This document shows, piece after piece, positions 30,886 through 51,206 of a stretch of DNA of 64,000 bases (its first letter is position 1; each line of letters opens with the position of its first letter). The DNA lies in NCBI GenBank assembly GCA_014859835.1, contig JACZKW010000047.1, positions 68,794 to 132,793 of the forward strand. Reading direction: 5' to 3'. The notes under the pieces were generated by a model. It was not told where the DNA came from. It ran no database searches and was given only the letters and a program-made list of their open reading frames with translations. Source of the DNA: Thermoplasmata archaeon. Its GTDB lineage: Archaea > Thermoplasmatota > Thermoplasmata > UBA10834. Position numbers and translations under genes: made by a program.

Positions 30886-31404
30886 TCACGCTTCAGTCGA
30901 TCTTGTCGCTAGCCCATTCGCGGTCTCAACGACGAACTTGACGATGCTCGGTAGGGCCTTGGAGACCGTATCAGTCAGCTCCTCGCTCACATTTACGAGG
31001 TCGTCCGCTTCGATTGCGATGAAGATGACCTCCTTAGGCATCTTATCGGGCACTACCTTCCTTCCCAGCGCGAATGCAGTGGCGACATTTATTCCGTGCG
31101 GGGAAGCCCCGTGTACCGTATTCTCGAAGTCCTCTTCACGGAGTGCATAGAATTCTCCAGGGCGACCGCCCTCGGTCTTGATCGCGTCCACGACTATCAC
31201 TTGGTCATAGCCGATGATCATGTCGAGGAGTTCCAGTCCACTCGCGGCGAGCTCCTCCACATCTATCGATGGCATGGACATCTCCCTTAGCTTCCTGGCG
31301 ACATGTATGCCAACGCCGTCATCCGACAATATAGGGTTGCCCAGACCTATCACCAAGGTTCTCATGCCATCCGCAACGGTTTCCGCCATATTTATCCTGT
31401 CCAC
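30886..31404 (-). CDS. Hydrogenase maturation endopeptidase (HycI/FrhD/HybD family); start ambiguous (M at 31404, 31389 or 31368)
   Basis: …RTLVIGLGNPILSDDGVGIHVA… with the Asp/His metal ligands typical of hydrogenase C-terminal proteases. It lies directly downstream of mvhA. Confidence 0.75.
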   Translation of the reverse strand: MDRINMAETVADGMRTLVIGLGNPILSDDGVGIHVARKLREMSMPSIDVEELAASGLELLDMIIGYDQVIVVDAIKTEGGRPGEFYALREEDFENTVHGASPHGINVATAFALGRKVVPDKMPKEVIFIAIEADDLVNVSEELTDTVSKALPSIVKFVVETANGLATRSTEA

Positions 31405-31461
31405 ACTAATCTCTGAATGAATGAAAAACTGGAATTCGGAGGGTTTCCCCTCCAGAGTTTC

Positions 31462-32985
31462 TCAAAAGTTTCTTACCGTCTCGACGATGGAACCGTCCTT
31501 TCTGTGGACCTTCACTTCGAGCGCAGGGCCGCCGTTCAGAGCATGTGTCCCGCACGAGTTGCAGGGGTCATAGCATCTGAATGCCATCTCAACTTTGTTG
31601 AGCAGTCCTGGCGAGACCTCGCCGTTCTTGATCAGGGCCTTGGCCGCCTGCTTCACGCTCGTGTTGATCGCAGCGTAGTTGTTGGTCGTCGCGACTATCA
31701 TGTTGATCTTAGTGCAGATGCCGTCCTTGTCCGAGGCGTAGTGGTGTATGAGCGTGCCTCTTGGGGCCTCGCAGATACCGACACCCTCCGTCGGCGGGTT
31801 GAACGCTCCTCTGATATCGTCGCTTGTGATGCTCTTGTCATTCGCGAGCTCGAGCATCCGTTCCCCGGCGTACTGCAGCTCGATCACCCTTGCCCAGTGA
31901 TACGCGAGCGTGTGGTGTACCGGACCTTTCACCCCGAGGTCCTTCATGGTCTTCGCGAGCACTTCGTACTCGGCCTGAGCCAGAGGTGTGGTGTATCCTT
32001 CGCACACGTTTATCCTGCCCAGAGGACCGACACGGTAGATGCCGCTCGATGGACCGACCTCGAAGCCCTTCCATCCGACGCTCTTCAGGTAGGGCATCTT
32101 CATGTAGGTCCATGGTTCGACATGCTCGGCGATTATGTCCAGGTACTCGCTAGGCTTGAACTTGACGACCTGTTTGCCGGTCTGGTCGACTACACGGATG
32201 TCACCATCGTAGAAGTTGCTCTTGTTGTTCTTGTCGACCATACCCATATAGTAGGTCTCGAGGTAGTATGCGTCCTGGTTCAGGATGAGGCCGAGGTAGT
32301 CCTTGTTGGCGAGCACGACATCGTGAAACAGCTTTATCGTGAACTTGCCGAACTCGACACACGACTTCGCCATCTCCACCATCTGCAGGCGCTCCTCCTC
32401 ACTGATTTGCTTGGAGACCCCGCCGGGGAGGCCGAATACTGGGTGCGTCGCCCTTCCGCCGATTATCTCCTGGACCTTCTGACCGTAAGACCTGTGCTTT
32501 ATCACTTCGGCACCGATCGGGACGCCTACCGCGTCCACTACCCCCAGCACGTTCCTCTTGCTGGCCGGGGCCGATGGTCCAAGGACGAAGTCCGGGGCCG
32601 CGAGGGCGTAGAAGTGCGCTATGTGGCTGTGGGTGTACTGTCCCATGTAGAACAGCTCCCTGAGCTTCTTGGCGGTCTCGGTCGGCTCGGCATTGAACAC
32701 TGCGTCCAAAGCCTTCGTCGATGCTATGTGGTGCGCAGCTGGACAGACACCGCAGAGCCTGTTCGTCAGCACGGGCAGCTCCTGCACGTGGCGGCCGATG
32801 CAGAATCTCTCGAATCCTCTGAGTTCCGGGACCTGGAGGTATGCGTTCGCGACGTTCCCGGCATCGTCCAGGAATATCTCGATCTTGCCATGCCCCTCCA
32901 GTCTCGTGATAGGGTCTATCGTGATTTTCTTCTCCTTCGTCTTCACCGTTGCATCGTTGATGATAGGTCCTGTCATTGCAATCAC
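31462..32985 (-). CDS. mvhA: [NiFe] hydrogenase large subunit, F420-non-reducing (Mvh/Vhu-type)
   Basis: N-terminal RLEGHG and …CGVCP… (RxCGxC). C-terminal DPCNSCGTH followed by a cleavable extension. Confidence 0.85.
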   Translation of the reverse strand: MIAMTGPIINDATVKTKEKKITIDPITRLEGHGKIEIFLDDAGNVANAYLQVPELRGFERFCIGRHVQELPVLTNRLCGVCPAAHHIASTKALDAVFNAEPTETAKKLRELFYMGQYTHSHIAHFYALAAPDFVLGPSAPASKRNVLGVVDAVGVPIGAEVIKHRSYGQKVQEIIGGRATHPVFGLPGGVSKQISEEERLQMVEMAKSCVEFGKFTIKLFHDVVLANKDYLGLILNQDAYYLETYYMGMVDKNNKSNFYDGDIRVVDQTGKQVVKFKPSEYLDIIAEHVEPWTYMKMPYLKSVGWKGFEVGPSSGIYRVGPLGRINVCEGYTTPLAQAEYEVLAKTMKDLGVKGPVHHTLAYHWARVIELQYAGERMLELANDKSITSDDIRGAFNPPTEGVGICEAPRGTLIHHYASDKDGICTKINMIVATTNNYAAINTSVKQAAKALIKNGEVSPGLLNKVEMAFRCYDPCNSCGTHALNGGPALEVKVHRKDGSIVETVRNF

Positions 32986-33995
32986 CCCTTCTTGTTGCGC
33001 TCCTTGACAATCCTTCTAAGCGGGGACTTCGGCAGCGTGAACGCGTAGAACGTGCCGAGCGGGTCCTTGACCTGCATCATCATTTCCATTATCTGCTCCT
33101 CACTTAAGGTTGACTCCGAATCTGTGATGTTCAGGAGCGAGGACACGGCACTCAACATGCTCGCGCCCTGGTCGATGACCGCCTTGGTCGGGCCCATGCA
33201 TCCCCTGCAGGGCATGTTCGCGTTGGGGCACATCGCGCCGCAACCGGCCCTGGTGGCAGGTCCTATGCAGATTATGCCTTGGTCAAGCAGGCACTTCTTG
33301 GGGTCTGGCTTGATCTCGTAGGCCTGATAGATCTTGTCTATCCTCCTGTTCTTCTCGACCCTCTCCTTCTTACACTCGTCACACAGAGTCTTGTCACTGG
33401 CGATTACAGTGCCCTTCGGGGGCAACGGCGCGCCCTTCGTCACATGCTGGACGACGGCATCGACTGCCAATGCGATCAGGTTGACCGTCGGTGGGCAGCC
33501 GGGCATGAAGTAGTCGACGTCTATCACTTCGTCGAGCGTCTTCACATCGTTGTAGAACTTCGGCAGTTCCAGCTCACCCTCGGGGACCTTGGTTATCTCC
33601 TGTGGGTAGATCCCGTTGGGGTTGTCCGTGGACTGCGTCTTCTTGTAGACGGTCTCGAAGACCTCTTCCCTGTTGGTCACATTGCCCAGGCCAGGCGTCC
33701 CACCGAAGCAGGCGCAGGATCCGAAGCTTATCATTATCACCGATTTCGCCCTGAGCAGCTTGGCCACATGCTCGTTCTCGGAGTTCCTTATGGCCCCGTT
33801 GTAGAACGATACCGTGATAGACTTGTCAGGCATTTTCTCGATATCTTCCAGCTTGCCATCGAACCCGATGGGCCAGAACACGACCTCGGCTATCGCATGT
33901 ATGTCCAGTATCTTCGCATCTATGTCCAGGAGTGCTACGTCACATCCGCCGCAGCCTGCTCCCCAGTACTGCGCGATCTTGATCTTCTCAGCCAT
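32982..33995 (-). CDS. mvhG: [NiFe] hydrogenase small subunit (Mvh/Vhu-type)
   Basis: …AQYWGAGCGGCDVAL…, …GSCACFGG…, and distal Fe-S cluster Cys motifs. Confidence 0.85.
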   Translation of the reverse strand: MAEKIKIAQYWGAGCGGCDVALLDIDAKILDIHAIAEVVFWPIGFDGKLEDIEKMPDKSITVSFYNGAIRNSENEHVAKLLRAKSVIMISFGSCACFGGTPGLGNVTNREEVFETVYKKTQSTDNPNGIYPQEITKVPEGELELPKFYNDVKTLDEVIDVDYFMPGCPPTVNLIALAVDAVVQHVTKGAPLPPKGTVIASDKTLCDECKKERVEKNRRIDKIYQAYEIKPDPKKCLLDQGIICIGPATRAGCGAMCPNANMPCRGCMGPTKAVIDQGASMLSAVSSLLNITDSESTLSEEQIMEMMMQVKDPLGTFYAFTLPKSPLRRIVKERNKKG

Positions 33996-33996
33996 T

Positions 33997-34386
33997 TCAG
34001 CTCACCTCTCCTATGTCCGATTGCTTACTGGGAACTGCCGAGTACTGAGGCGCCTGCCCTTTCATGCCGGTCTGTTCGACCAGCCTCCACTTCTTCAGGG
34101 CGATTATGTGCCTGACGATCTCCGGCTTCGCTATGCCCGTGAAGTCGTGCAGCTCGTGCACGGTCCTGGGCCCCTTCTCCATCTGTGACAGGAGCAGGTT
34201 CCTCTCCAGCTCCACCGCCGCAGCCTTCTGCACGATGAAGCTGTACCTCGCATCCGTGATCTTCTCGCCGAACACATTTCCTACCGTCGTGAGCTGCCCC
34301 TTCTTCCCAAGGAGCCACCTTATGCGCTCGCCCTCGACGGTCCTTCTAGCCGCCTCGATCCTGGCCTTTCTTCCAGTCATCGTCAT
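33997..34386 (-). CDS. Small winged-helix-like protein, homologous to the C-terminal extension of the MvhD-fusion at 37873-38706
   Basis: 129 aa (…GKKGQLTTVGNVFGEKI…LERNLLLSQMEKGPRTVHELHDFTGIAKPEIVRHIIALKKWRLVEQTGMKG…). It overlaps both mvhD upstream and mvhG downstream by 4 nt. The aligned module in the other gene reads …GKELNLVGKGNVYDNKL…FERSLILELSRTKARSVKELGEMMEVPTDKVLRHIVLLRQNSLIAMEHPEG…. Confidence 0.5.
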   Translation of the reverse strand: MTMTGRKARIEAARRTVEGERIRWLLGKKGQLTTVGNVFGEKITDARYSFIVQKAAAVELERNLLLSQMEKGPRTVHELHDFTGIAKPEIVRHIIALKKWRLVEQTGMKGQAPQYSAVPSKQSDIGEVS

Positions 34387-34838
34387 TCACCACCTCTGAT
34401 CGGAGATGGTCCAAGCTCGTTTATCGTGTTCGTGAATTCGGTCATGGTCTTCTGGAACTTCTCGCCCTCACCGGCCGAGATCCATTCCAACTGCAGTCTG
34501 TCCGTGTCATAACCGAACTGCTGTATGAGCATCTTCAGCAAGGCTATCCTCCTGCGGGTCCTGTAATTTCCACCTATGTAGTGGCAGTCCGCTGGGTGAC
34601 AGCCTGCGACCAGGATGCCGTCCGCGCCCCTCTCGAACGCCCTGAGGACGAACTCGGGGTCGACCCTGGCGGAGCACATGACCCTGATGACCCTGAAATG
34701 AGGTGGCATCTGGAGCCTGCTGACTCCTGCCAGGTCCGCTCCTGCGTACGAGCACCAGTTGCAGCAGAACACTATGATCTTCGGCTCGAATCCGTGGTCC
34801 GTCCCGGTCTTCTGGTGGTTGTGAGCATCTGAACTCAT
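34383..34838 (-). CDS. mvhD: MvhD (methyl-viologen-reducing hydrogenase delta subunit), [2Fe-2S] carrier
   Basis: …KIIVFCCNWCSYAGADLAGVSRLQMP…RVMCSARVDP…GCHPADCHYIGGN…. Confidence 0.85.
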   Translation of the reverse strand: MSSDAHNHQKTGTDHGFEPKIIVFCCNWCSYAGADLAGVSRLQMPPHFRVIRVMCSARVDPEFVLRAFERGADGILVAGCHPADCHYIGGNYRTRRRIALLKMLIQQFGYDTDRLQLEWISAGEGEKFQKTMTEFTNTINELGPSPIRGGE

Positions 34839-37800
34839 TGCTTCACCTCCTGCTTCTTCGGTTCCTCAACAAGCGCAGCATCGATCATAGCGAGGATCTG
34901 CTCATCCCTGAAACCCTTCTGGGTGAGTGCGCCAGCGGGACATGCTCCCACACAGGCGCCGCAACCCTTGCACAGACCGACATTGACATCGACGATCTTC
35001 TTGTCCTTGATCTTCTTGTTATCGATGATCTCGAGCGCCTTGTACTCGCATGTGGGCACGCAGATGCCGCAACCGTCGCAATATTGCTCGTCGACGCTCG
35101 CGACTATCCCCTCGGCTTCCAGCGTGGTCTTGGATAAGATCGTCATGGCCCTGGCGACTGCGCCAAGTGCTTGGGCGATGCTCTCATCCACGAACTTCGG
35201 CGAATGAGCTATACCGGCGAGATAGACGCCTTCGGTGGCGAAGTCGATCGGCCTCAGCTTCATGTGCGCCTCCAGGAAGAAACCTTCCTTGGTTATAGGG
35301 ACCTTCAGCATGGGCGCGAGTTCCTCGGAGCCTTCCTCTGGCCTGGTCCCAGATGCGAGGACAAGGCAGTCTGGCCTCAGAACGACCTCCTTGCCGGTGT
35401 CCTCGTCTATCAATCTCACTTCGATCTTGCCGCCCTTGTCCTCTACGACGGGCTTCTTCTCATCGTCGAACCGTATGAAGGTCACGCCCTTCTGCGCGGC
35501 CTCCTTGTAGTACTTCTCTCTGAAGCCATAGGTCCTGATGTCCCTGTAGAGCACGTACACCTTCGCGTTCGGGTCCTTGTCCTTGATCTTATTGGCCGCG
35601 GTCATAGTGCCCGTGCAACAGACGCGGGAACAGTTCGGGAACTTGTCCTCCCTGGACCCGACGCACTGTATGAACACATAGGAATCGCCCTTGACCTCTC
35701 CCTTCTTCATCTTGCCCTTGAACTCGAGGAGCGTCATCACGTTGGCGTTCTTGCCATATAGGTACTCTCCCTCGGGCTTGTACTCCCGTCCGCCGACGGC
35801 GACTACGACGACTCCATGCTCCATCTCGGAGCCGTCCGTGAGCTGCGTCTTGAAGTTGCCGACATATCCGTCGATGGTCTTTACGGTCGTTCCAAGGTGT
35901 AGCGTGATGTTCTTGTTCGCCCTGATCTCCTGATCGACCTTCTTGAGGTACTCGTCAGGGTCGTCCCCGGACGGGAGATAATGAAGCTTCCTCAGGTTTC
36001 CTCCGAGTTCCTTCTCCCTCTCCACCAGGTGCACCTTGATGCCCTGCTTGGCGAGTTCTAGAGCGGATACCATGCCGCTCACTCCACCACCTATGACGAG
36101 AGCGTCCTGGTTCACGTTAATTATGAGGTTCTCGAGCGGTTCCAGCAACCTCGACTTCGCAAGAGCCATCCGCACAAGGGCCTTGGCCTTCTTCGTGGCG
36201 GCCTTAGGCTCGTGCATGTGTATCCAAGAGCACTGGTCCCTGATGTTCGCCATCTCGAAAAGGTACGCGTTGAGGCCAGCCTCCCTGATGGTGTTCTGGA
36301 ATAGTGGTTCATGCGTCCTCGGAGTGCAGCTCGCGACGACCACTCTGTTCAGGTCGTGCTCCTTGACCTTCTCCTTGATCTTCTCCTGAGCATCGGCGGA
36401 ACACGTGTACAAGTTCTGTTCGGCGTACACCACGTTGGGCAGGGTCTTCGCGTATTCCATGACCTCTGGCACATTGACGACGCCGCCGATGTTGATGCCA
36501 CAGTGGCAGATGAACACACCTACCCTGGGCTCCTTGCCGACCACATCGATCTCCTTCGGGTACACCTTTTTGGTGATCAAGGTGTTCCTTGAGGCCGTTA
36601 TCTCTGTGCCCGCCTTGGCCGCGGCACCGCTCGCTTCGGCCACGGTCATCGGGATATCCTTCGGTGACGAGAACGCGCCGCTGACGAATATGCCCGGTCT
36701 GGATGTCTCGACAGGTGAGAACGCGCCTGTCTGGCAGAACCCGTCGTCGTTCAGCCTGAACTTCATGACACGGCTCAGATTCTCCGCGTCCGCGGGCGGT
36801 GTCAGACCGACAGCCAGCACGACCAGGCCGAACTCCTCTTCCTTCGGTTCGCCGTTCTCGACGTACTTGATCATCAGATTCTTCGTCTTCGGGTTCTCGA
36901 CGACCGCCGCTGCCCTGGATCGGACGAATCTTATGCCGTATTCGTTCTTGGCGCGGTTGTAGTAATCATCGAACTCCTTTCCGAAGGCCCTCATGTCCAT
37001 GAAGAATATCGAGGGCTTGATGTTCCCTCCGTGTTCCTTGGCTATGATCGCCTCCTTGATCGAGTACATGCAACATACGCTGGAGCAGTACTCGTTCCCG
37101 CAGTGCTCGTCCCTGGAGCCGACGCACTGTATGAACGCGATCTTCTCGGGTATGTCACCGTCCGATGGCCTGAGCACGGTCCCGAAGTACGGGCCGGTCG
37201 CGCTCAGCATCCTCTCGAACTCTATGCTCGTGACGACGTTCGGGTACACGCCATAACCATACTCTGGCTTCAGGCGCGCGTTGAACTCGTCGAAGCCGGG
37301 AGATACGATGATCGACCCGACCTTGATCTCGAAGACCTTCTCCTTCTGATCGTAATCGACTGCCTTGGCCTTGCACTCCTCTGCGCAGATCCCGCAACCT
37401 ATGCACTTCTCGGGGTCTATCGAGTAGATCAGAGGTACGGCCTGCGGGTATGCGACATAGATCGCCTTCCTGATCTTCGTTCCCTCGTTGTACTCGTCCA
37501 CGGCCTCGATCGGACATTTCTGGGCGCAGCTTCCGCAGCCAGTACACTTCGTAGGATCGACCCTGAAAGCCCTCTGCCTCACCGTGACGGTGAAGTTGCC
37601 CGCCTGGCCATCCACGATGGCGATGTCCGCGTTCGTGATCAACTGTATGTTGTGGTGCCTGCCCGCGGCGACCAGCTTGGGCGCCATTATACACATGGCG
37701 CAGTCGTTCGTCGGGAAGGTCTTATCGAGCTGGGCCATGGTGCCGCCTATGCTCGCCTTCTTCTCAACCAGATATACTCTGTATCCGGAATCGGCAAGGT

Positions 37801-37876: not shown

Positions 37877-38706
37877 TGCTCACCTCCGATCTCTATGGTC
37901 TTGTATGTGGGGGTGAATCCCTCCGGGTGTTCCATGGCGATCAGACTGTTTTGCCTGAGCAGGACTATGTGTCTGAGCACCTTGTCCGTAGGGACCTCCA
38001 TCATCTCCCCGAGCTCCTTAACGGACCTCGCTTTGGTCCTGGACAGCTCGAGTATGAGGCTCCTCTCGAACTCATCGGAGGTGGCCTCTGTGATTATCTT
38101 CTCTATCTCCTCCGGGTCCAGCTTGTTGTCGTAGACATTGCCCTTGCCGACAAGGTTCAGTTCCTTGCCCACAAGCGCCTTCAATCTGAATGTCTCGGAC
38201 GCCATGTCCGCGGCCGCGACCCTTGACATCAACCGTTCATCCTTCTTGACCTTGTTCGGTCCCAAGGCCTTCACGGTCTCCGTGAACTCCGTCACGACCT
38301 TCGAGAACTTCTCTCCTTCTGATGCGGACACCCATTCGAGCCTGAGTCTCTCGGGCGCTATGCCACATTCTTTGAGCAGCTTCTTCATGAGGTTCACGCG
38401 CTTCTCCGTGTAGTAGTTCCCGCTGATGTAATGGCAGTCTCCTATGTGGCAGCCGCCGAGCAGGATGCCATCGGCACCAGCCTTGAAGATGTCCAACACC
38501 AGATGCGGACTGATCCTCGTAGAGCACATCACCCTGACCGGGCGTATGTTGGTCGGGTACTGGTACCTGCTCACTCCACACAGGTCCGCTCCTGCATACG
38601 AGCACCAGTTGCAGAGGAACCCGATAATCTTCGGTTCCCACTCGCTGTCATGCTTCTTCTCTAGTGCGTGCGTCTCGTGATGAGTAGTGTGATGCTTTTC
38701 CGTCAT
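37873..38706 (-). CDS. MvhD-domain protein with about 130-aa C-terminal winged-helix-like extension
   Basis: The N-terminus (…KIIGFLCNWCSYAGADLCGVSRYQYP…GCHIGDCHYISGN…) is MvhD. The C-terminal extension is homologous to ORF 33997-34386. Confidence 0.75.
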   Translation of the reverse strand: MTEKHHTTHHETHALEKKHDSEWEPKIIGFLCNWCSYAGADLCGVSRYQYPTNIRPVRVMCSTRISPHLVLDIFKAGADGILLGGCHIGDCHYISGNYYTEKRVNLMKKLLKECGIAPERLRLEWVSASEGEKFSKVVTEFTETVKALGPNKVKKDERLMSRVAAADMASETFRLKALVGKELNLVGKGNVYDNKLDPEEIEKIITEATSDEFERSLILELSRTKARSVKELGEMMEVPTDKVLRHIVLLRQNSLIAMEHPEGFTPTYKTIEIGGEQ

Positions 38707-44141: not shown

Positions 44142-47100
44142 ACCTTCACCTCCTCGTCCTTGTCAGTCAAGAGGGCCTCGAGCATGGTCATTATCTGTTC
44201 GGACTTGAAGTGCTTGGGACTGATCGCCCGCGCACAGCATGCGACCGCGCAGGAGCCACAGCCCTTGCAGAGCGCCTCGTTAATCCTGGATTTGATCACT
44301 CCTGGGGATATCTCCTCGAGTCTCGGGGCGCCGTACTCGCACACATCCTCGCATCTGCCGCAGGCTATGCACCTCTCCTCGTTGACGACGCTCACGACCC
44401 CTTCGGCCTCTATGAACGGTTTGGACAGGACGGTGTTCACCCTTGCAGCTGCGGCCAGCGCCTGCGATATGCTCTCGTCGATCAATCTCGGTGAATGCGC
44501 GAGCCCGCAGAGGAAGATCCCGTCCGTCGCGAAATCGACCGGTCTCAGCTTCATGTGTGCCTCCAGGAAGAACCCCTCCTTGGTCAGCGGCACCTTCAGC
44601 AGCTGGGCAAGGTCCTTGTTGTCCGGGTTCGGCCGGACCGCGGCGTTTAGAACGAGATAGTCCGTTTTGATCGTCACGGTCTGCTCTATGAACTGTTCGT
44701 CGATCTCCACGACGATGTCCCCATTCGTCGCAACGACTCTGGGTGGAGATTCGGGATCGTATCGGAGGAAGATGACGCCAAGCCTGGCCGCTTCGTTGTA
44801 ATTCTCCTCTGCGAAACCGTAGGTCCTGATGTCTCTGTAGAGCACGAAGACATTCGTCTCGGGGTGCTCCTTCTTGATCTTCATCGCGTTCGCCATGGCG
44901 GTCGAACAGCATATCCTGGAGCAGTTCGGATACTCGTCGTTCCTCGAACCGACGCACTGGATTATCACGACATTGTCCGCCTTGAAATCTTTCTCGGCAA
45001 GCAGCTCTCCCAGATCCGTCTGCCTGATGACCTTCGGGTTCTTCCCGAACATGTACTCCACCGGCTCGTACTCCACACCACCGGTGGCCACGACGATGGC
45101 GCCGTGCTTGAACTTCTCTCCGCTCTTGAGAGTGGTCTCGAAATTGCCGATATATCCCTTTATCTCCGAGGCGGTCTCGTTGAGGTAGGTCTTGATGTTC
45201 TTGTGTTCTGCTATTTCCTTCTCGAGCTGTTCGAAAGTCTTCTGGGGGTCGACTCCCGAGAGTGTATGATGTATCCGTCTCAGATGCCCACCCAGCTGCT
45301 TCTCCTTTTCCACCAGGTGCACCTCGAAGCCGGAATTCGCTATCTCTAGGGTCGCGGTCATGCCGCTCAGACCTCCGCCGATGACCAGCGCTGACGGTGT
45401 GACGGGTATCTTGGGTTGAGGTAGAGGCTCAAGCATCGCCGCTTTCGCTACCGCCATGCGCACAAGGTCCTTCGCTTTCGCGGTCGCTTTCACCGGTTCC
45501 AACCGGTGCACCCAAGAGCACTGGTCCCTGATGTTGGCCATCTCGAAAAGGTACTTGTTCAGCCCCGCCTCCTTGACCGTGTTCTGGAACAGCGGCTCGT
45601 GAGTCCTCGGCGTACAGCTCGCGACGACCACCCTGTTCAGGTCGTGTTTCTCGACGACCTCCTTGATCTTCTTCTGAGTGTCCTGTGAGCATGTGTAAAG
45701 GTTACGTTCGACGTAGACCACGCCAGGCAAGGTCGCTGCATATTCGACTACCTCCGGCACGTTCACCACAGAACCGATGTTTATGCCGCAATGGCAGACG
45801 AACACGCCTATCCTGGGTTCCTTGCCGGAGACATCCCTCTCCTGTGGATACTCCTTCTTGGTGACCAGCTTGCCCCGCTCATCCGACAGTAACGCTGCCA
45901 CCTTCCCCGCAGCGCCGCTGGCTTGAGCGATCGAGTCTGGAATGTCCTTCGGGCCAGAGAACGCGCCGCACACGAATATCCCGGGGACGGATGTCGACAC
46001 AGGGGTCAGATCGTCAGTCTCGCAGAACCCGAACTTGTTCAGGTTGAGTCCGAATATCTTTGCCATATTGCCAGTGGATTCCGGGGGCCTCGCGCCCGCA
46101 GAGAGCACGACCAGGTCGAACACCTCCTCTCGAATGTCCGGACCCTCGAGATAGCTGAGCATGAGGTTGTTCGTCTCCGGGTCCTCCTGGACCTTTGATA
46201 TACGGTTGTTCCTCAGGACCCTCACGCCGTATTCGTTCTCCGCTCTCATCAGGTATTCCTCGAACTCCTTGCCGAAAGCCCGAGTGTCCATGAAGAATAT
46301 CGCAGTGTCCAGCCCCTGGACATGCTCCTTGCCTATGACCGCCTGCTTCAGGGCGGCCATGCAACAGTATGATGAACAATAGGTATTGGATGTCTGCGCG
46401 TCCCTCGAGCCGACACACTGTATGAACGCGATCTTCTTGGGCACATCCCCATCCGAAGGCCGGATCACGTGTCCCTCCGTCGGACCAGACGCGCTGAGCA
46501 TCCTCTCGAACTCTATGTTCGAGAGCACATTATGGAATACGCCGTGCCCGTACTCGATCTTCTTCGACGAATCGTAGACGTCGTATCCGGGGCTCAGGAT
46601 GATGGCGCCCACCTCGATCATCTCTTCCTTGTCCAGCTCATCGGAGTAATTGATCGCCTTCGCCTCGCAGAATCTGTCACAGACCCCGCATCCGATGCAC
46701 AGTCCCTTGTCTATAGTGTATACTAAGGGCACAGCCTGCGGGAACGGGACATAGATCGCCTTTGCCGGTGCCAAGTCCCTATCAAAGGCGTTGGCCCCTT
46801 CGATCGGGCAGTGTTCGGCGCACACTCCGCAGCCAGTGCACTTCTCTTCGATTATGAACCTGGACCTACGCGATAGCTTGACCTTGAAATCACCCGTTTT
46901 GCCCTCGATGCCCTTGAGCTCCGCGTTGGTGATCATCGTGATGTTCTCATGCCTCCCTGTCGCGACCAGCTTCGGGGAGATGATGCACATCGAGCAATCG
47001 TTCGTGGGGAAGGTCTTGTCCAACTGTGCCATCGTGCCGCCTATGCTGAGCCCGGATTCGAGTATGTACACCTTGAACCCGGAATCGGCCAGATCCAGCG

Positions 47101-47164
47101 CCGCCTGCATCCCTGCGGGACCGCCTCCGACCACGAGCACGGCCCCAACTTTTCTATCTGCCAT
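44138..47164 (-). CDS. hdrA: Long (1008 aa) tandem-fused HdrA, paralog of 34835-37876
   Basis: VLVVGGGPAGMQAALDLA at the N-terminus. An internal HdrA N-domain (…IGVFVCHCGINIGSVVN…ASCTPRTHEP…DQCSWVH…) and a second FAD motif ALVIGGGLSGMTATLEIA. Collinear with the other long HdrA. Confidence 0.85.
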   Translation of the reverse strand: MADRKVGAVLVVGGGPAGMQAALDLADSGFKVYILESGLSIGGTMAQLDKTFPTNDCSMCIISPKLVATGRHENITMITNAELKGIEGKTGDFKVKLSRRSRFIIEEKCTGCGVCAEHCPIEGANAFDRDLAPAKAIYVPFPQAVPLVYTIDKGLCIGCGVCDRFCEAKAINYSDELDKEEMIEVGAIILSPGYDVYDSSKKIEYGHGVFHNVLSNIEFERMLSASGPTEGHVIRPSDGDVPKKIAFIQCVGSRDAQTSNTYCSSYCCMAALKQAVIGKEHVQGLDTAIFFMDTRAFGKEFEEYLMRAENEYGVRVLRNNRISKVQEDPETNNLMLSYLEGPDIREEVFDLVVLSAGARPPESTGNMAKIFGLNLNKFGFCETDDLTPVSTSVPGIFVCGAFSGPKDIPDSIAQASGAAGKVAALLSDERGKLVTKKEYPQERDVSGKEPRIGVFVCHCGINIGSVVNVPEVVEYAATLPGVVYVERNLYTCSQDTQKKIKEVVEKHDLNRVVVASCTPRTHEPLFQNTVKEAGLNKYLFEMANIRDQCSWVHRLEPVKATAKAKDLVRMAVAKAAMLEPLPQPKIPVTPSALVIGGGLSGMTATLEIANSGFEVHLVEKEKQLGGHLRRIHHTLSGVDPQKTFEQLEKEIAEHKNIKTYLNETASEIKGYIGNFETTLKSGEKFKHGAIVVATGGVEYEPVEYMFGKNPKVIRQTDLGELLAEKDFKADNVVIIQCVGSRNDEYPNCSRICCSTAMANAMKIKKEHPETNVFVLYRDIRTYGFAEENYNEAARLGVIFLRYDPESPPRVVATNGDIVVEIDEQFIEQTVTIKTDYLVLNAAVRPNPDNKDLAQLLKVPLTKEGFFLEAHMKLRPVDFATDGIFLCGLAHSPRLIDESISQALAAAARVNTVLSKPFIEAEGVVSVVNEERCIACGRCEDVCEYGAPRLEEISPGVIKSRINEALCKGCGSCAVACCARAISPKHFKSEQIMTMLEALLTDKDEEVKV

Positions 47165-47165: not shown

Positions 47166-47615
47166 TCAAACGTCCTCCTCGCACAACGGTCCGAGCCTCT
47201 CCAGCTCTGCCACCATCTTCTTTACGACGTCTGCGAACTTCTGTCCCTCTGAGCCAGCGATCCATTCTATTCGGAATCTCTGGTCCTCTATGCCCGCGTC
47301 TTCGAGGAATTCTGACAGGAAGTCTCCTCTCATCGCCGCCTTCTCGTTGCCGTTTATGTAATGGCAATCCGCTGGATGGCATCCTGCGACGATCACACCG
47401 TCCGCACCCAGCTCGAATGCCTTCAGCACGAAGGCCGGATCGACTCTTCCCGAGCACATGACTCTGATTATCCTGACATTTGACGGATACTGCAATCTGC
47501 TCACGCCCGCCAGGTCAGCTCCTGCATACGAGCACCAGTTGCAGCAGAATGCGATGATCTTGGGCTCGTGAGTCTTCTCTGTGCTCTGAGCATCCTTGGT
47601 GACTGGTCCGCTCAT
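47166..47615 (-). CDS. mvhD: MvhD; track ORF extends upstream to 47951 across the hdrB 3' end, but an ATG at 47615 with a GGGGGG SD follows the hdrB stop
   Basis: …KIIAFCCNWCSYAGADLAGVSRLQYP…RVMCSGRVDP…GCHPADCHYINGN…. Confidence 0.8.
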   Translation of the reverse strand: MSGPVTKDAQSTEKTHEPKIIAFCCNWCSYAGADLAGVSRLQYPSNVRIIRVMCSGRVDPAFVLKAFELGADGVIVAGCHPADCHYINGNEKAAMRGDFLSEFLEDAGIEDQRFRIEWIAGSEGQKFADVVKKMVAELERLGPLCEEDV

Positions 47616-47617
47616 GT

Positions 47618-48535
47618 TCACGCCCCCCTGAGCTTCCTCAGCAGTGAATGGGCGGACACGTGATGCGTATCGAAGCCCAGCGAGATCGGGTCTATGCCCA
47701 TCGAGAGTGCCTGGAGCTGTGATACATGCATGACCGGGATGCCATCCTTCGTGAAGGTCTTCTGCGCGTTGTCGAACTGAAGGAGGCAGAACGGGCATCC
47801 AGTGACGATGCAGTCTGCGCCGACTGCCGAAATGTTCTTGCACTTGTCCTCCGTGAGCGAGTTGGCGAGATCGACGACGTGGGATCTCACACCACCTCCC
47901 GCGCCGCAGCAATCCAACTTGTCCTCGTAATCCACGGATGTCGCGCCGCACGCCTCGACGATCTGGTCGAGGAGCACGGGGTTGTTCGGATCATCTATCG
48001 TTTGATTCTCCGTCGGTCGCAGGTAATGACATCCATAATGCACGGCCACGGTGATGTTATTCAGGGGTTTCTTGACCTTGCTGGCTATGGCCTCCAGACC
48101 TATGTCTCTGGCCATCACATCGATATAGTGGCGTACCTTGACTGGTTCGAAAATCTTCCTCCTTCCCTCGGTCTTCCTGGGCACGCCAGTATATTTCTTA
48201 CCTATCTGGGCGAGCACACGGTTCACCCTGCCCATGGCCTTCGGATCCTGGAGGTACTCCGTGGCTTTGAGGAGGGAGGTGAGGCAGCCGTTGCATACGG
48301 TCATGATGTCCCTTCGCTCCTCCTGGGCAAGTACGAGGTTCCTCGCGGCCAGCAGAAGCCATGTGTTCTTGTCGGTGGAGTAGAATATCCCTGGGACCGG
48401 GCAGCAAGAGAACTCTGGCATGTCCATCACGTCGAGGTCGAAGCCCTCTTTTCCACAGACCCACCTCACTGCATATTCGATGCCAGGATATCTGTTCGGT
48501 ATGACGCAACCGAAGAAGTACGCGTAAGGGGTCAT
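47618..48535 (-). CDS. hdrB: Heterodisulfide reductase subunit B
   Basis: Two CCG domains (…FFGCVIP…FSCCPVPG… and …HYGCHYL…LDCCGAGGG…GCPFC…). Confidence 0.9.
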   Translation of the reverse strand: MTPYAYFFGCVIPNRYPGIEYAVRWVCGKEGFDLDVMDMPEFSCCPVPGIFYSTDKNTWLLLAARNLVLAQEERRDIMTVCNGCLTSLLKATEYLQDPKAMGRVNRVLAQIGKKYTGVPRKTEGRRKIFEPVKVRHYIDVMARDIGLEAIASKVKKPLNNITVAVHYGCHYLRPTENQTIDDPNNPVLLDQIVEACGATSVDYEDKLDCCGAGGGVRSHVVDLANSLTEDKCKNISAVGADCIVTGCPFCLLQFDNAQKTFTKDGIPVMHVSQLQALSMGIDPISLGFDTHHVSAHSLLRKLRGA

Positions 48536-49116
48536 GCCTTGACCTCCTCTTCGATGCCTATGAGTTTGTCGTACTTCGACGCGTGTATCAGGACATTGAT
48601 CTCCCGCAATACCTTCTTGTAACTCGGATCGTTCGAATGCACCTGCTCCAGGCCAAGCTCGCTTCGGATCTTGTTGATCTCCTCGTCCGGTTTGACGCTC
48701 TGGCCATACCTCACGAGGTTCGTTGCGGCTACCTTGATGAACGGAGGTATGACTCCTTCCCTGACTGCTATGTGTCTAAGTGCGATCATCACCTCGGCCG
48801 GATTGATGTCGGCCGGGCAATGCTCGTAGCATCTGTAACAGGTCGCGCATACCCATCGGGTGCTGAGGGTGTAGCTCTTGAGTCCGAACTGGCAGTACTT
48901 GATGATGCTCCTTGTCTTGTAATCTATCTTCAGGCTTATCGGGCATACACCAGTGCAGTTTCCGCATTGGAGGCAGGTCATGACGTCCTTTCCGCCGTAC
49001 TTCTTGATTTCCTTCGCGAAATTTCGATCCAGCTGGCTCTCGTCGATGACCTTCTCCTCGACGAGTTTCTCCTTGAGTCCACTAATGAAGGTCTTCTCGA
49101 CTTCTCCGATGATCAC
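48532..49116 (-). CDS. hdrC: Heterodisulfide reductase subunit C
   Basis: CLQCGNCTGVCP and CATCYRCYEHCP (2x[4Fe-4S]). Confidence 0.9.
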   Translation of the reverse strand: MIIGEVEKTFISGLKEKLVEEKVIDESQLDRNFAKEIKKYGGKDVMTCLQCGNCTGVCPISLKIDYKTRSIIKYCQFGLKSYTLSTRWVCATCYRCYEHCPADINPAEVMIALRHIAVREGVIPPFIKVAATNLVRYGQSVKPDEEINKIRSELGLEQVHSNDPSYKKVLREINVLIHASKYDKLIGIEEEVKA

Positions 49117-51206
49117 ACCTCCGTCTCAGCGTTCTTCTTCTGAGGTGGTTTATGCGTCCCACATATTGGCGTCCATGCCGCCATGATCTCCGAATTTATC
49201 TGATCGTCAGTGAACTGCTTTGCGGTTATGGCCTTCTGTGGACACGATGCAGCACAAGTACCGCATCCATGGCATAGGGCCTCTATGATGCGCACTTTCG
49301 TGCCTCCCTTCTCGGATTCGTAGAGCTCGGGAGCACCATATGGGCAAAGTTCTGCGCAAAGGCCACAGCCGACGCATAGGTCTTCGTCGATCGATACCGT
49401 GAGCGGTTCTATCCTCACCTTTCCAGTCAGCATGAGCACTGCAGCGGACGAGGCCGCTGCCTTGGCCTGGGCGACGGAGTCCGGGATATCCTTAGGAGCC
49501 TGCGCGCAACCCGCGACAAAGATCCCGTCGGCAGCCGTGTCGACTGGTCTCAGCTTCGGATGCGCTTCCATGAAGAACCCGTCGGGGCTCGTCGTGATGC
49601 TCAGTATCTTCCCTATGCGCTTGCTCCCCTCGGATGGCACCAGGCCTGTCGACAGAACCACAAGATCGAATTCCCTCTCGGTGATCTTGTTGAGCAGCGT
49701 CTCCTCAGCCCTGATCGTGATGACCTTTGTCTCAGGGTCCTCGCTCAGCTTGGCTGGCCTGCCCCTGAAGAATTCGACTCCGTACTCTTCTCTGACACGG
49801 TGATAGAGTTCTTCGAACCCTTTCCCGAAAGCTCGTATGTCATTGTAATACACCGCGATTTCGGTGTCCGGCTCATGTTCCTTGATTATCTGCGCATTCT
49901 TTATCGCGTACATGCAGCAGACGCGTGAGCAATAGTTGTTGCCGATCTTCTTGTTTCTGGAACCGACACATTGGATGAATGCCACGCGTTTCGGTGTGAC
50001 TTTGTCCGAAGGCCTTATCAGATGCCCGCCGGTCGGACCCGAAGCGTTCAACAGCCTCTCGAGTTCGAGGGCCGATATCACGTTCTCATATTCCCAGTAC
50101 TTGTAGACGCCCTTCCTCATGGGCACATAGGTCTCGGATCCAGTCGCGATGATTATCGTCCCGACCTTGAAATCGAGCACCTCGTCCTCCATCTTATGGT
50201 CGATCGCGTTGTTCGTGCACGCCTTGACGCAGAGCTGGCACTTCCCGCTCTTGAAATGCAGACAGTTCTCCTTGTCTACAGTGTATTTCAGCGGGACGGC
50301 CTGCGGGAACGGGACGTATATCGCCTTCCTCTTCCCAAAGCCCATGTCGAACTCGTTATCCACCTTGACTGGACAGACATCGGCACATACACCGCATCCT
50401 ACGCACTTGTCCTCGTGGACGAACCGCGCCTTCCGCCTTACCTTCACATCATAATTGCCGATGTACCCCTTGACTTCCTCGACCTCTGAGTATGACAGCA
50501 GCTCGATGTTTGGGTTACGCGATAGCTCGACCATCTTCGGCGCGAGTATGCATATCGCACAGTCCCCTGTCGGGAATGTCTTGTCAAGCTGTGCCATCAC
50601 TCCGCCGATGCTCGGTTTGCTCTCGACCAAGTACACTTTGAATCCCATGTTGGCGAGGTCGAGTGATGACTGTATCCCGGTGACCCCTCCTCCGACCACG
50701 AGCGCAGCTCTTTCGACTGGGACCTCCCTTGCCTCCAACGGTTCCAGCCTGGCCACCTTGGAGACCCCCATCCTCACGAGGTCGATCGCCTTCTGAGTCG
50801 CGTTATCCTTCTCATGTGAATGGACCCACGAGCACTGCTCGCGGATGTTGACCATGTGTAATACGTACGGATTCAGCCCCGCCCTCTGTATGCATGTCCT
50901 GAATGTCGGTTCATGCAGTCTCGGAGAACACGAAGCTATGACCACTCTGTTGACATTCCATTCCTTGATCGCCTTCAGGATCTCTTCCTGACCAACGTCG
51001 GAGCAAGTGTATTTATTGTCCCGAGCGACCACAACGCCCGGCAGCTCTTCAGCTGCATCTCTCACTTTGACGCAATCGACCACGCCCGCGATATTGCTAC
51101 CGCAGTGGCATACGAAAACTCCTATACGTGGTTCGGTCGCGTCGCTTGTCCCTTGTGACGGCGTTCTTTCAACAGAGTCCTTTTCCAGAGGTTCGGGCGA
51201 GCCCAT
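49113..51206 (-). CDS. hdrA: Heterodisulfide reductase subunit A (canonical length, 697 aa)
   Basis: N-domain Cys cluster (…IGVFVCHCGSNIAGVVD…ASCSPRLHEP…EQCSWVH…), FAD motif ALVVGGGVTGIQSSLDLA, inserted and C-terminal ferredoxin motifs. A GGAGGGGGGA SD lies directly upstream. Confidence 0.9.
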   Translation of the reverse strand: MGSPEPLEKDSVERTPSQGTSDATEPRIGVFVCHCGSNIAGVVDCVKVRDAAEELPGVVVARDNKYTCSDVGQEEILKAIKEWNVNRVVIASCSPRLHEPTFRTCIQRAGLNPYVLHMVNIREQCSWVHSHEKDNATQKAIDLVRMGVSKVARLEPLEAREVPVERAALVVGGGVTGIQSSLDLANMGFKVYLVESKPSIGGVMAQLDKTFPTGDCAICILAPKMVELSRNPNIELLSYSEVEEVKGYIGNYDVKVRRKARFVHEDKCVGCGVCADVCPVKVDNEFDMGFGKRKAIYVPFPQAVPLKYTVDKENCLHFKSGKCQLCVKACTNNAIDHKMEDEVLDFKVGTIIIATGSETYVPMRKGVYKYWEYENVISALELERLLNASGPTGGHLIRPSDKVTPKRVAFIQCVGSRNKKIGNNYCSRVCCMYAIKNAQIIKEHEPDTEIAVYYNDIRAFGKGFEELYHRVREEYGVEFFRGRPAKLSEDPETKVITIRAEETLLNKITEREFDLVVLSTGLVPSEGSKRIGKILSITTSPDGFFMEAHPKLRPVDTAADGIFVAGCAQAPKDIPDSVAQAKAAASSAAVLMLTGKVRIEPLTVSIDEDLCVGCGLCAELCPYGAPELYESEKGGTKVRIIEALCHGCGTCAASCPQKAITAKQFTDDQINSEIMAAWTPICGTHKPPQKKNAETEV

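Follow-up and report, generated by a model that had tools for sequence, protein, structure and literature searches.

A lineage-conserved Hdr/Mvh gene array with three double-HdrA modules and one hydrogenase in a Ca. Gimiplasmatales archaeon

The 64,000-nucleotide window analysed here, from an uncultured Thermoplasmata archaeon of Ca. Gimiplasmatales (GTDB UBA10834), carries four MvhD domains, seven FAD domains, one HdrBC pair and one HdrCB fusion in a single gene array, exactly the counts given in an earlier note on this DNA. Does such an array encode one large machine, several electron-bifurcating modules, or a familiar complex with spare copies? With moderate confidence, we read it as a lineage-conserved array, probably made of two units, in which one hydrogenase and one classical Hdr set stand beside three double-HdrA/MvhD cores that may work as separate bifurcating or confurcating modules.

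The array occupies positions 30886 to 51206 and holds 16 consecutive minus-strand genes (Table 1), a number to which the earlier note's own list also sums despite its announced 18. HMM searches of the ORFs with Pfam and NCBIfam gave assignments that all agree with the gene order proposed there, and the cofactor motifs are all intact. At nine of the 15 junctions, start and stop codons overlap by 4 nt (four ATGA, four GTGA and one TTGA), and the six others are gaps of 1, 1, 3, 26, 57 and 211 nt; since only four are ATGA and one break reaches 211 nt, a description as mostly ATGA overlaps is only roughly right. The hyp genes do lie upstream, across a 469-nt spacer between hypD and hdrA-1 that holds a probably spurious 115-aa ORF.

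Table 1. Features of the array and its borders (window positions).
Feature	Group	Positions	Strand	Characteristics
hypB-hypF-hypC-hypA-hypD	 	51676..56266	-	[NiFe] maturation genes just upstream; synteny with the array kept in all relatives
box CGAAACCTATA	 	51340..51350	-	BRE/TATA-like, putative unit-1 promoter, in the hypD-hdrA spacer
hdrA-1	Set 1	49113..51206	-	697 aa; complete methanogen-type HdrA (Pfam/NCBIfam)
hdrC-1	Set 1	48532..49116	-	194 aa; 2 x CxxCxxCxxxC; TIGR03290 125 bits (cut-off 160)
hdrB-1	Set 1	47618..48535	-	305 aa; two complete CCG motifs; PF02754 E = 1.7e-31
mvhD-1	Set 1	47166..47621	-	151 aa; [2Fe-2S] Cys pattern intact; PF02662 E = 3.7e-55
double hdrA-2	Module 2	44138..47164	-	1008 aa; N-type half aa 1-440, linker, C-type half aa 441-1008
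mvhD-hdrCB fusion	Module 2	42546..44141	-	531 aa; MvhD, 2 x [4Fe-4S], 2 x CCG in order
cysR	Module 2	42097..42519	-	140 aa, basic; internal repeat 2 x ELSC-x4-C-x2-C-x4-CQRF, 8 invariant Cys
intergenic gap	 	41886..42096	-	211 nt; putative internal promoter of unit 2; box ACGAAACAGATAA at 42012-42022
hdrA-3n	Module 3	40587..41885	-	432 aa; N-type half as own gene, separate in all relatives
hdrA-3c	Module 3	38710..40590	-	626 aa; C-type half as own gene, with 53-aa charged insert
mvhD-3 + winged helix	Module 3	37873..38706	-	277 aa; C-terminal winged-helix domain (Pfam; homology to wH ORF)
double hdrA-4	Module 4 stretch	34835..37876	-	1013 aa; N-type + C-type layout as hdrA-2
mvhD-4	Module 4 stretch	34383..34838	-	151 aa; PF02662 E = 1.2e-55
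wH	Module 4 stretch	33997..34386	-	129 aa; stand-alone winged-helix protein; HTH_5 E = 4.7e-6
mvhG	Module 4 stretch	32982..33995	-	337 aa, 13 Cys; [NiFe]-hydrogenase small subunit; best match VhuG, E = 1e-67
mvhA	Module 4 stretch	31462..32985	-	507 aa; [NiFe]-hydrogenase large subunit; best match VhuA, E = 2e-125
maturation endopeptidase	Module 4 stretch	30886..31404	-	HycI/HybD-type hydrogenase protease (Pfam, NCBIfam)
hypE-like gene	 	29763..30881	+	AIR synthase-related fold; other array end, convergent with the protease gene

The first set is of the classical kind. Its HdrA comprises the N-terminal cluster, FAD/thioredoxin-reductase, inserted ferredoxin and C-terminal ferredoxin domains and, compared with 5ODC_A, keeps Cys11/13/46/71/103, Cys194/197, the 8 + 8 ferredoxin cysteines and residues 386/399/403/404; of the cysteine columns, only Cys326 and Cys541 (5ODC_A numbering) are replaced, and neither is kept consistently by any unit of the window. 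HdrB scores 329 bits against TIGR03288, slightly under the 345-bit cut-off, and HdrB, HdrC, MvhA and MvhG all fall under their NCBIfam equivalog cut-offs. MvhA carries both RxCGxCxxxH and DPCxxCxxH as well as a C-terminal extension, and is Mvh/Vhu-like (group 3c type).

The other HdrA units are built differently. In hdrA-2, residues 9-380 align with HdrA 146-511, residues 442-603 with HdrA 1-156, and residues 853-1001 with HdrA 509-654. By comparison with 5ODC_A, Cys194/Cys197 and the inserted ferredoxin domain are found in the N-type half, the N-terminal cluster domain and the C-terminal ferredoxin in the C-type half, and the FAD fold and HA4 cysteines in both. Between its unlike halves, each double HdrA has exactly one full set of accessory domains. 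In module 3, the boundary between the two genes coincides exactly with the linker of the fused proteins. The earlier note's proposal of several distinct HdrA/MvhD cores is supported as far as architecture and descent go: each has one accessory-domain set and its own MvhD, and the cores are old paralogs (40-57% identity between paralogous halves in protein, 60-84% in DNA) with positional orthologs across species. At the sequence level, the halves match the asymmetric heterodimer idea put forward for ANME and Moorella HdrA.

Such a pair may fold as an asymmetric pseudo-dimer, the equivalent of the methanogen (HdrA)2 core with a single complete circuit. Electrons from the MvhD [2Fe-2S] cluster would enter the C-terminal ferredoxin and reach the FAD; a first branch would then exit via HA4, and a second via the N-terminal cluster (with Cys197 of the partner half) and the inserted ferredoxin to ferredoxin, the path and the role of Cys197 being taken from PMC9012536. 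Exactly one MvhD gene lies behind every double HdrA, fused or split, which a single complete circuit per pair would explain; sequence logic and gene order suggest both the pseudo-dimer and a partnership between every HdrA and the MvhD downstream of it. Since both halves keep the FAD and HA4 motifs, a second active flavin is possible. The modules would act as independent flavin-based bifurcating or confurcating units, set apart by their high-potential partners: HdrBC for module 1 and, for module 2, the CB module fused to its MvhD, which is HdrD/TfrB-like, perhaps with the 8-Cys protein. This fusion is derived, since its MvhD and CB parts are separate genes in relatives L008 and L081. No CCG partner is encoded adjacent to modules 3 and 4, and bifurcation may thus be absent there. 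Electrons would come from H2 via MvhAG, most likely in module 4 if nowhere else and plausibly in the remaining modules; CoM-S-S-CoB is an unlikely acceptor.

Two small proteins accompany these cores. The MvhD part of mvhD-3 superposes on 5odc_D (60% identity, TM 0.81) and is followed by two long helices and a wHTH, a C-terminal part homologous to the stand-alone wH protein (E = 2e-16). The latter has no Cys and a pI of 10.1; its family counts only 128 representative clusters, and in seven of ten sampled multidomain members it stands directly behind an MvhD domain. The winged helix that goes with the MvhD of modules 3 and 4 could serve as a docking or scaffold element. The cysR protein (pI 9.6) has 189 homologs, of which the named ones are all hypothetical proteins of Thermoplasmata, and 28 of 29 family members give a weak match to PF04060 'FeS', under the gathering threshold; it is probably a metal- or Fe-S-binding protein.

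The array is also punctuated. The pattern CGAAACNNATA occurs at three sites in the window against 0.25 expected, all three intergenic. The gap before hdrA-3n measures about 120-220 nt in most related arrays (76 nt in L032), and its box, with a TA..G motif ~25 nt downstream, is kept in at least 80% of them. This conserved promoter-like box suggests two transcription units, probably from hdrA-1 through cysR and from hdrA-3n through the protease gene, with mvhGA confined to the second.

Within its lineage, the stacked arrangement is not unusual, contrary to first impressions: the identical order is found in over 30 UBA10834/Ca. Gimiplasmatales Thermoplasmata MAGs, each representing a species, where each double module has a positional ortholog at 70-99% identity. 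Nor is it the annotated cluster of a well-studied clade against which its novelty had been set; it is common and conserved, but the clade is not well studied, and the accessible papers on it treat Hdr/Mvh by presence or absence of genes, without describing the stacked array. Related arrays hold two to five double-HdrA modules, or NfnB-like inserts; the latter are seen in module 2 and module 3 orthologs, and in some relatives hdrA-3n has an NfnB/GltD-like module instead of the inserted ferredoxin. This variable number and this swap argue for separable plug-in units. Besides, the reduced relative L007 has the hyp genes and two modules without hydrogenase in the array, and distant arrays carry mvhAG on the opposite strand, which weakens an obligatory link to the hydrogenase. 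The components are of known kinds and the double HdrA has been recognised before, in ANME archaea and Moorella, as a prediction only (PMC9012536). We found no description of their multi-module stacking in a single array, nor of the MvhD-linked winged-helix domain, the clade-specific 8-Cys protein and the two promoter-like boxes.

How far do these observations decide between readings? An artefact of assembly or annotation, such as tandem repeats that were collapsed or joined into chimeras, or genes broken by frameshifts, might be suspected from the four-copy repeat families within the array, but it is effectively refuted: the copies are too divergent in DNA and protein, three assemblies from independent read sets contain an identical 1008-aa protein in the same gene neighbourhood, full-length homologs of about 1000-1016 aa number more than 100, and the order is repeated on contigs up to ~2 Mb, some deposited as whole chromosomes. 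It is hardly more credible that this is an ordinary methanogen-type MvhADG-HdrABC locus recycling CoM-S-S-CoB with redundant paralogs. The best database matches are indeed methanogen HdrA/B/C and VhuA/G/D, and the clade's Hdr/Mvh 'could recycle CoM' according to PMC11264602; yet the clade, with a Wood-Ljungdahl pathway and no MCR, is described in the literature as non-methanogenic, the subunits miss the equivalog cut-offs, and the paralogs, being complementary halves, differ in structure and are no redundant copies.

Two further readings deserve more weight, although we consider both improbable. All four HdrA cores, four MvhD, HdrBC, HdrCB and MvhAG could form a single machine with several flavins, on the model of the megadalton Hdr super-complexes found in methanogens (PDB 7bkb; PMC13518236), with the winged helices and the 8-Cys protein as glue or internal wires. 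The tight co-linearity with its translational overlaps, the resemblance of the winged helix to a structural MvhD appendage, and the joint inheritance of the AA2-DCB-cysR-A3n-A3c-MvhD/wH-AA4-MvhD core, even where the canonical hdrACB-mvhD is missing (L032, L048), would fit such an assembly, but modules can be lost among relatives and the conserved promoter-like box splits the array. It is about as doubtful that H2 is used only by hdrA-4/mvhD-4, perhaps with the canonical set, and that MvhD is a general adaptor to partners encoded elsewhere, such as methylene-H4F reductase, formate dehydrogenase, CODH, NAD(P)H modules or the second HdrA/MvhD-HdrCB pair. Hydrogenase-free MvhD is known, for instance in Moorella MetFV-HdrABC-MvhD (PMC9012536) or Methanosarcina HdrA2, the NfnB-like inserts suggest that relatives couple to NAD(P)H, the Wood-Ljungdahl pathway reported for the clade is of the H4F type, and both the hydrogenase-free modules of L007 and the confinement of mvhGA to the second putative unit agree with it. 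On the other hand, no MetF/MetV, Fdh or other donor gene was found in or beside the array, in the window and in relatives alike, and the hyp genes and mvhGA are strictly syntenic in most species. Separate modules beside one hydrogenase and one classical set remain the reading that we prefer.

Compared with known systems, Set 1 together with mvhG/mvhA matches all six subunits and all cluster ligands of MvhAGD-HdrABC from hydrogenotrophic methanogens (PDB 5ODC, 8RVU, 7BKB), to which the HdrA halves align at E ~1e-200. Here, however, the host is a non-methanogen, and the array adds three asymmetric double-HdrA cores, an MvhD-fused HdrD-like CB, the winged helix and the 8-Cys protein. ANME archaea have HdrA3/4 fused and HdrA5/6 and 12/13 in tandem, read as symmetry-broken heterodimers (Chadwick et al. 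2022, PMC9012536); these paralogs are likewise longer than 1000 aa or adjacent pairs, with complementary N-terminal cluster domain and Cys197, and NfnB-like inserts occur within the inserted ferredoxin domain in ANME-1 and in type-II relatives of the array alike. The half order is reversed, since the Cys197 half without the N-terminal domain comes first here and the N-terminal-domain half in ANME HdrA3/4; the partners are MvhD and a [NiFe] hydrogenase instead of FrhB/FdhAB-like proteins, and three double-HdrA units are stacked in one array. As described in PMC9012536, MetFV-HdrABC-MvhD of Moorella thermoacetica, a user of the H4F Wood-Ljungdahl pathway, shares a fused double HdrA with complementary halves, MvhD and HdrBC. 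In place of its metF/metV, absent in and beside the array, a hydrogenase is encoded. In QmoABC of sulfate reducers, an HdrC-like subunit accompanies two HdrA-related flavoproteins that differ from each other, and an MvhD-like domain follows one of the two, a layout that resembles split module 3. The array has neither the membrane HdrE-like part nor apr genes, no Qmo-named NCBIfam family matches the N-type or C-type half, and at E <= 1e-10 the N-type half matches no NCBIfam family besides methanogen HdrA/HdrA2. Finally, Methanosarcina HdrA2B2C2 (PMC5296606) has a single HdrA fused to MvhD, which is thereby an integral adaptor without hydrogenase. All HdrA units and MvhD domains of the array score best in NCBIfam with its HdrA2 model (NF040770), always under the 1100-bit cut-off; compared with HdrA2, HdrA is doubled here, and MvhD either stands as its own gene or is joined to HdrCB or the winged helix.

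Sixteen consecutive minus-strand genes, running from 51206 to 30886 of the window, form a canonical hdrA-hdrC-hdrB-mvhD set followed by three modules, each built on a double HdrA whose two unlike halves are either fused (hdrA-2, hdrA-4) or split into neighboring genes (hdrA-3n and hdrA-3c). The gene order proposed in the earlier note agrees with Pfam and NCBIfam searches of each ORF and its assignments were retained, but its count of 18 genes was an error, since its own list sums to 16. It had also described the genes as joined mostly by ATGA overlaps: 4-nt start/stop overlaps are indeed found at nine of the 15 junctions, but only four of them read ATGA (four are GTGA and one TTGA), while the remaining six junctions are gaps of 1, 1, 3, 26, 57 and 211 nt. 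The cofactor-binding motifs are intact, with two C..CC..CxxC motifs each in HdrB and the MvhD-HdrCB fusion, two CxxCxxCxxxC motifs each in HdrC and the fusion, and the CxWC..C..CxxxDC pattern in all four MvhD domains. MvhA displays RxCGxCxxxH and DPCxxCxxH, and its C-terminus is extended for the protease. The array is flanked by hyp genes on both sides. The spacer between hypD and hdrA-1 (469 nt) is AT-richer, and the short ORF lying in it, matched only in the close relatives L004/L005/L009 (87% identity) and L015 (50%), is probably a leader or promoter region and not a gene. The rest of the 64-kb window encodes POR, CDC48, TPR proteins, histidine biosynthesis and NAD synthase genes, and no MetF, Fdh, CODH or mcr gene was found there. 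It also contains a response-regulator/PAS protein gene and a tRNA missed by ARAGORN, whose length implies an intron, as is typical of archaea, so that it identifies the window as archaeal DNA; this tRNA is the sole Rfam match in the window, with none inside the array.

Positions and composition of the array, neighboring features and selected loci of relatives (L-numbers); positions are in the window unless a protein or locus is named
Feature	Position	Strand	Description
Set 1		-	hdrA 697 aa, hdrC 194, hdrB 305, mvhD 151 (Pfam, NCBIfam)
Module 2		-	double hdrA 1008 aa; 531-aa fusion of MvhD, two [4Fe-4S] motifs and two CCG domains (both Pfam, NCBIfam); 140-aa Cys-repeat ORF (cysR)
Module 3		-	split hdrA-like pair 432 + 626 aa; MvhD with C-terminal extension 277 aa (Pfam, NCBIfam)
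Module 4		-	double hdrA 1013 aa; mvhD 151; ArsR-like winged-helix ORF 129; mvhG 337; mvhA 507; HycI-type protease 172 (Pfam, NCBIfam)
hypBFCAD	51676-56266	-	upstream of array, same strand
hypE-like gene	29763-30881	+	downstream of array, convergent with protease gene
Spacer ORF	51239-51586	-	115 aa; no Pfam match
hdrA-3c	38710-40590	-	C-type half of module 3
CGAAAC-NN-ATA site	20110-20120	+	pattern search of window
CGAAAC-NN-ATA site	42012-42022	-	pattern search of window
CGAAAC-NN-ATA site	51340-51350	-	pattern search of window
Oxidoreductase cluster	8355-11329	+	three-gene 2-oxoacid/pyruvate:ferredoxin oxidoreductase (ferredoxin-dependent enzyme)
tRNA	26229-26334	+	106 nt; Rfam 40.8 bits
Response-regulator/PAS gene	26432-27652	+	
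FAD domain + inserted ferredoxin	double hdrA-2, residues 9-380		HdrA 146-511
N-terminal cluster domain	double hdrA-2, residues 442-603		HdrA 1-156
C-terminal ferredoxin	double hdrA-2, residues 853-1001		HdrA 509-654
hdrA-3n ortholog	L016:11761-14466		about 900 aa; NfnB/GltD-like insert
Second HdrA/MvhD-HdrCB module	L080:7334-11674		two genes
Ras/Roc-family small GTPase gene	L080:15049-15675	-	Pfam Ras, E = 2.5e-35
IS605 OrfB/TnpB (Cas12f-like) domain genes	L006:2378-3653		between hypF and hypC

Compared with solved HdrA structures, the domain order of double hdrA-2 is permuted. Alignment of all HdrA units with the methanogen HdrA 5ODC_A (MAFFT) revealed a clean complementarity between N-type halves (hdrA-2 residues 1-440, hdrA-3n, hdrA-4 residues 1-442) and C-type halves in all three double units. 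Cys194/Cys197 and the inserted ferredoxin (8 Cys) are present in the N-type and absent from the C-type halves, whereas the N-terminal cluster domain (Cys11/13/46/71/103) and the C-terminal ferredoxin (8 Cys) are found in the C-type halves alone; the HA4 cysteines (Cys386/399/403/404) and the GxGxxG FAD fold occur in both. By contrast with the halves, hdrA-1 has all domains and all cluster-domain Cys columns of 5ODC_A (Cys11/13/46/71/103, 194/197, 8 + 8 ferredoxin, 386/399/403/404). The pattern of four domains, FAD and six [4Fe-4S] sites is thus complete in hdrA-1 alone, and in the double units only when both halves are paired. Module 3 is split precisely where the fused versions have their linker. 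From these residue patterns, the two halves of a double HdrA would build an asymmetric (HdrA)2-like pair that shares the N-terminal cluster. The PDB yielded no solved structure of a fused HdrA. The hdrA-3c protein additionally carries, in its FAD domain, a highly charged insert of 53 aa (residues about 336-388, …ERRRRRRSRGTEGESDAEE…) that is missing from the fused paralogs and from 5ODC_A.

Such long genes in a repetitive array could in principle reflect collapsed tandem repeats, an artefact that the earlier note had named among the findings that would refute its reading. It does not hold: the 1008-aa double HdrA is recovered with identical sequence and the same upstream neighbors in three independent read-set assemblies, and has more than 100 full-length homologs (about 1000-1016 aa) that are assigned, where sources give a name, to Thermoplasmata/Thermoplasmatota MAGs. 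Within the array, paralogs share only 47-55% (N-type halves), 40-57% (C-type halves) or 51-63% (MvhD domains) identity, and DNA repeats are 60-84% identical. This divergence and the recurrence of the long HdrA in independent assemblies exclude the collapse of repeats, and the degree of sequence divergence marks the paralogs as old.

To evaluate the spread of the array, one genome per GTDB species was scanned with the MvhD-HdrCB protein as query, which yielded orthologs at 73-98% identity in 36 loci, and every ORF of these loci was matched against the 23 window proteins. All contigs of sufficient length show an identical order (hypBFCAD, hdrA, hdrC, hdrB, mvhD, double hdrA, mvhD-hdrCB, cysR, split hdrA pair, mvhD-wH, double hdrA, mvhD, wH, mvhG, mvhA; wH, winged helix), as in L009, L012, L015, L020, L024, L025 and L031, the latter on a 1.98-Mb chromosome (OY970070.1); direct look-ups of relatives agree. 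The synteny comparison with Thermoplasmatota MAGs called for in the earlier note shows that the gene order of the window recurs. An otherwise syntenic relative, L006, has IS605 OrfB/TnpB (Cas12f-like) domain genes inserted among its hyp genes. The array-bearing MAGs include isolate UBA10834, eponym of the GTDB order, and RBG_19FT_COMBO_56_21, eponym of the genus COMBO-56-21. The lineage abounds in anoxic sediments and groundwater, with a predicted lifestyle as archaeal acetogen or methylotroph. In the literature, UBA10834 is equated with Ca. Gimiplasmatales, reported to lack MCR and to possess an H4F Wood-Ljungdahl pathway with CODH/ACS. 'HdrA-D, MvhAGD' are given as present in this clade and one paper suggests CoM recycling (PMC11264602); the accessible literature on Thermoplasmatota/Gimiplasmatales is confined to presence/absence statements for Hdr/Mvh, the cluster itself being undescribed.

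Variants of the array are instructive about its construction. In L008 and L081, two distinct genes encode MvhD and HdrCB, which marks the fused form of the window as derived. Neither the canonical hdrA-C-B-mvhD set nor a stand-alone wH gene occurs in L032, L036, L037 and L048, while L027-L029 have one additional MvhD-wH + double-HdrA module. Four to five double-HdrA units with convergent mvhAG are found in L043, L046 and L047 (55-70% identical; labelled Methanomassiliicoccales or Methanobacteriota). The small-genome relative L007 (CP070736.1, 1.42-Mb chromosome) has kept hypBFCAD and a truncated array without hydrogenase genes, made up of the canonical set and about 1.5 modules (a double HdrA, an MvhD-wH and an HdrA fragment of 512 aa); this array may be a decaying version. 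In L016, an NfnB/GltD-like module (Fer4_20 + Pyr_redox_2) replaces the inserted ferredoxin of the hdrA-3n ortholog; seven similar loci (L017, L021-L023, L026, L038, L040) show the same replacement, and cysR is absent from the arrays that bear it. A 1477-aa relative of double hdrA-2 (P0113) has the same insert. This exchange of the inserted ferredoxin suggests that electron outlets are exchangeable. Elsewhere in the same genomes, a single C-type HdrA (about 590 aa) stands before a second MvhD-HdrCB paralog (55-58% identical). This two-gene module is widespread (L050-L087); in L080, two CBS-domain genes precede it, and the neighborhood (CBS proteins, an acyl-CoA synthetase-like gene, transporters) offers no clue to a substrate. 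The same MAG, 98% related to that of the window, encodes a Ras/Roc-family small GTPase.

Transcription may be divided within the array. The cysR/hdrA-3n gap, about 120-220 nt in most related arrays and 76 nt in L032, bears a conserved ACGAAACAGATAA box; a TA..G motif, likewise conserved, follows about 25 nt downstream. The pattern CGAAACNNATA (motif CGAAAC-NN-ATA) occurs three times in the window versus 0.25 expected, always in intergenic regions; one site precedes hdrA-1 by 134 nt and another falls in the cysR/hdrA-3n gap, where it is conserved across relatives. This motif is probably the host's BRE/TATA promoter signature, and its sites suggest two transcription units, from hdrA-1 to cysR and from hdrA-3n to the protease gene, with mvhGA located only in the second.

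Two components are uncharacterised. The 8-Cys protein encoded by cysR (pI 9.6) has 189 homologs, called hypothetical protein and Thermoplasmata in all sources that name one, and all contain two invariant ELSC-x4-C-x2-C-x4-CQRF repeats. No Pfam or NCBIfam family matches it above threshold, PF04060 'FeS' and zinc-knuckle families giving weak, sub-threshold matches, and an AlphaFold2 model from a 28-sequence alignment (pLDDT 39) has no assignable fold. Its candidate roles are Fe-S carrier, thiol substrate of the neighboring CCG module or Zn protein. The wH ORF (no Cys, pI 10.1) and the C-terminal extension of MvhD-3 are homologous (29% identity over 111 aa, E = 2e-16); the wH ORF matches Pfam HTH_5 (E = 4.7e-6) and no NCBIfam family. 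In the AlphaFold model of MvhD-wH, the 277-aa MvhD-3 (pLDDT 72.5, pTM 0.71), the MvhD part matches 5odc_D (TM 0.81) and is followed by two long helices and a winged helix-turn-helix, residues 229-266 of which form H-T-H + beta-hairpin at pLDDT about 90. Against the PDB, Foldseek was convincing for the MvhD part alone, the wH part giving generic weak matches (DnrK N-terminal domain, Csa3). Such a fold could point to a DNA-binding regulatory role. When 1.84 billion representative proteins were searched exhaustively with HMMER, the family comprised only 128 clusters, and in seven of ten sampled multidomain members the domain directly follows MvhD (HdrA-MvhD-wH, polyferredoxin-MvhD-wH, MvhD-wH-GltD-like). 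The tiny family and its place directly behind MvhD favor a structural role, DNA binding being conceivable as well, and we read wH as a putative MvhD-associated docking domain.

How could these parts work together? In the electron path of Chadwick et al. (PMC9012536), electrons pass from MvhD via the C-terminal ferredoxin to FAD, where the flow branches, to HdrBC via HA4 and to ferredoxin via the N-terminal cluster and the inserted ferredoxin. On this path, each double unit would have exactly one inlet and one ferredoxin outlet, the single inlet fitting the single MvhD gene that follows each unit. A high-potential module (HdrD/TfrB-like CB) is fused to MvhD in module 2, and none is encoded near modules 3 and 4. 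It is unlikely that all products of the array join in one super-assembly, against which the variable number of modules among relatives speaks; this variation argues for separable units and not for one fixed machine. A more elaborate and distinctly improbable scheme is a modular, multi-flavin bifurcation hub of a hitherto unrecognised kind: a single [NiFe] hydrogenase would dock via four cognate MvhD adaptors onto four different HdrA cores, three of them obligately asymmetric and single-track, with wH as address tag, H2 electrons delivered to several acceptors at once and the 8-Cys protein serving the HdrD-like module as dedicated Fe-S carrier or as thiol substrate. If true, H2 electrons would be distributed in this way within an archaeal, non-methanogenic, Wood-Ljungdahl-type metabolism. 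An even more speculative variant makes MvhD-wH a [2Fe-2S] redox-sensing DNA-binding regulator.

Flavin-based electron bifurcation of the HdrA type has a central place in how anaerobes conserve energy; to our knowledge, its structural basis has been worked out only for the symmetric enzyme of methanogens. With one hydrogenase beside one symmetric and three asymmetric HdrA cores, a single organism thus provides a natural comparison set, which could serve to examine HdrA pairs, whether fused or split, as single-track bifurcators, MvhD adaptor recognition and the use of Hdr in non-methanogens. Undescribed in the searchable literature are this conserved stack in an archaeal order that is widespread and non-methanogenic, the reversed order of the HdrA halves, the MvhD-associated winged helix and the 8-Cys protein, the last two being flagged here as uncharacterised components for study. 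Besides, our analysis corrects the simple reading 'HdrABC/MvhADG present, recycles CoM' in metabolic reconstructions of these MAGs.

Regarding known systems, the motifs are those of methanogen-type enzymes (two CCG in HdrB, two [4Fe-4S] in HdrC, NiFe motifs, MvhD [2Fe-2S] Cys), and the best families for the hydrogenase and MvhD are VhuA, VhuG and VhuD (group 3c [NiFe] type). A methanogen-type enzyme was nevertheless rejected: the NCBIfam equivalog cut-offs are not reached by HdrA (680 < 1400), HdrB (329 < 345), HdrC (125 < 160), VhuA (419 < 800) or VhuG (228 < 450), and the host physiology reported in the literature, without MCR, does not fit; no mcr gene lies within the 64-kb window. As for Qmo, the HdrC-like parts give a weak qmoC match (68 bits < 300), Qmo-named families do not match the HdrA halves at E <= 1e-10, and the array has neither apr genes nor a membrane subunit. 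A preprint on HdrA evolution makes no mention of fused forms. The double units resemble the fused and tandem HdrA of ANME archaea and the Moorella HdrA, whose N-terminal domain and Cys197 are complementary; Chadwick et al. proposed a heterodimer breaking the two-fold symmetry of (HdrA)2, reasoning that the N-terminal cluster of one protomer is ligated by Cys197 of the other (PMC9012536). The three double units of the window show this same complementarity. They differ in that it extends to both ferredoxin domains, unlike in that report, and in a reversed permutation, the half without the N-terminal domain coming first, whereas in ANME HdrA3/4 the half with this domain leads. The NfnB/GltD-like inserts of the relatives mirror ANME-1 HdrA9-11. 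The components of the array are of known kinds, namely Mvh/Hdr and the asymmetric type of double HdrA known from ANME and Moorella.
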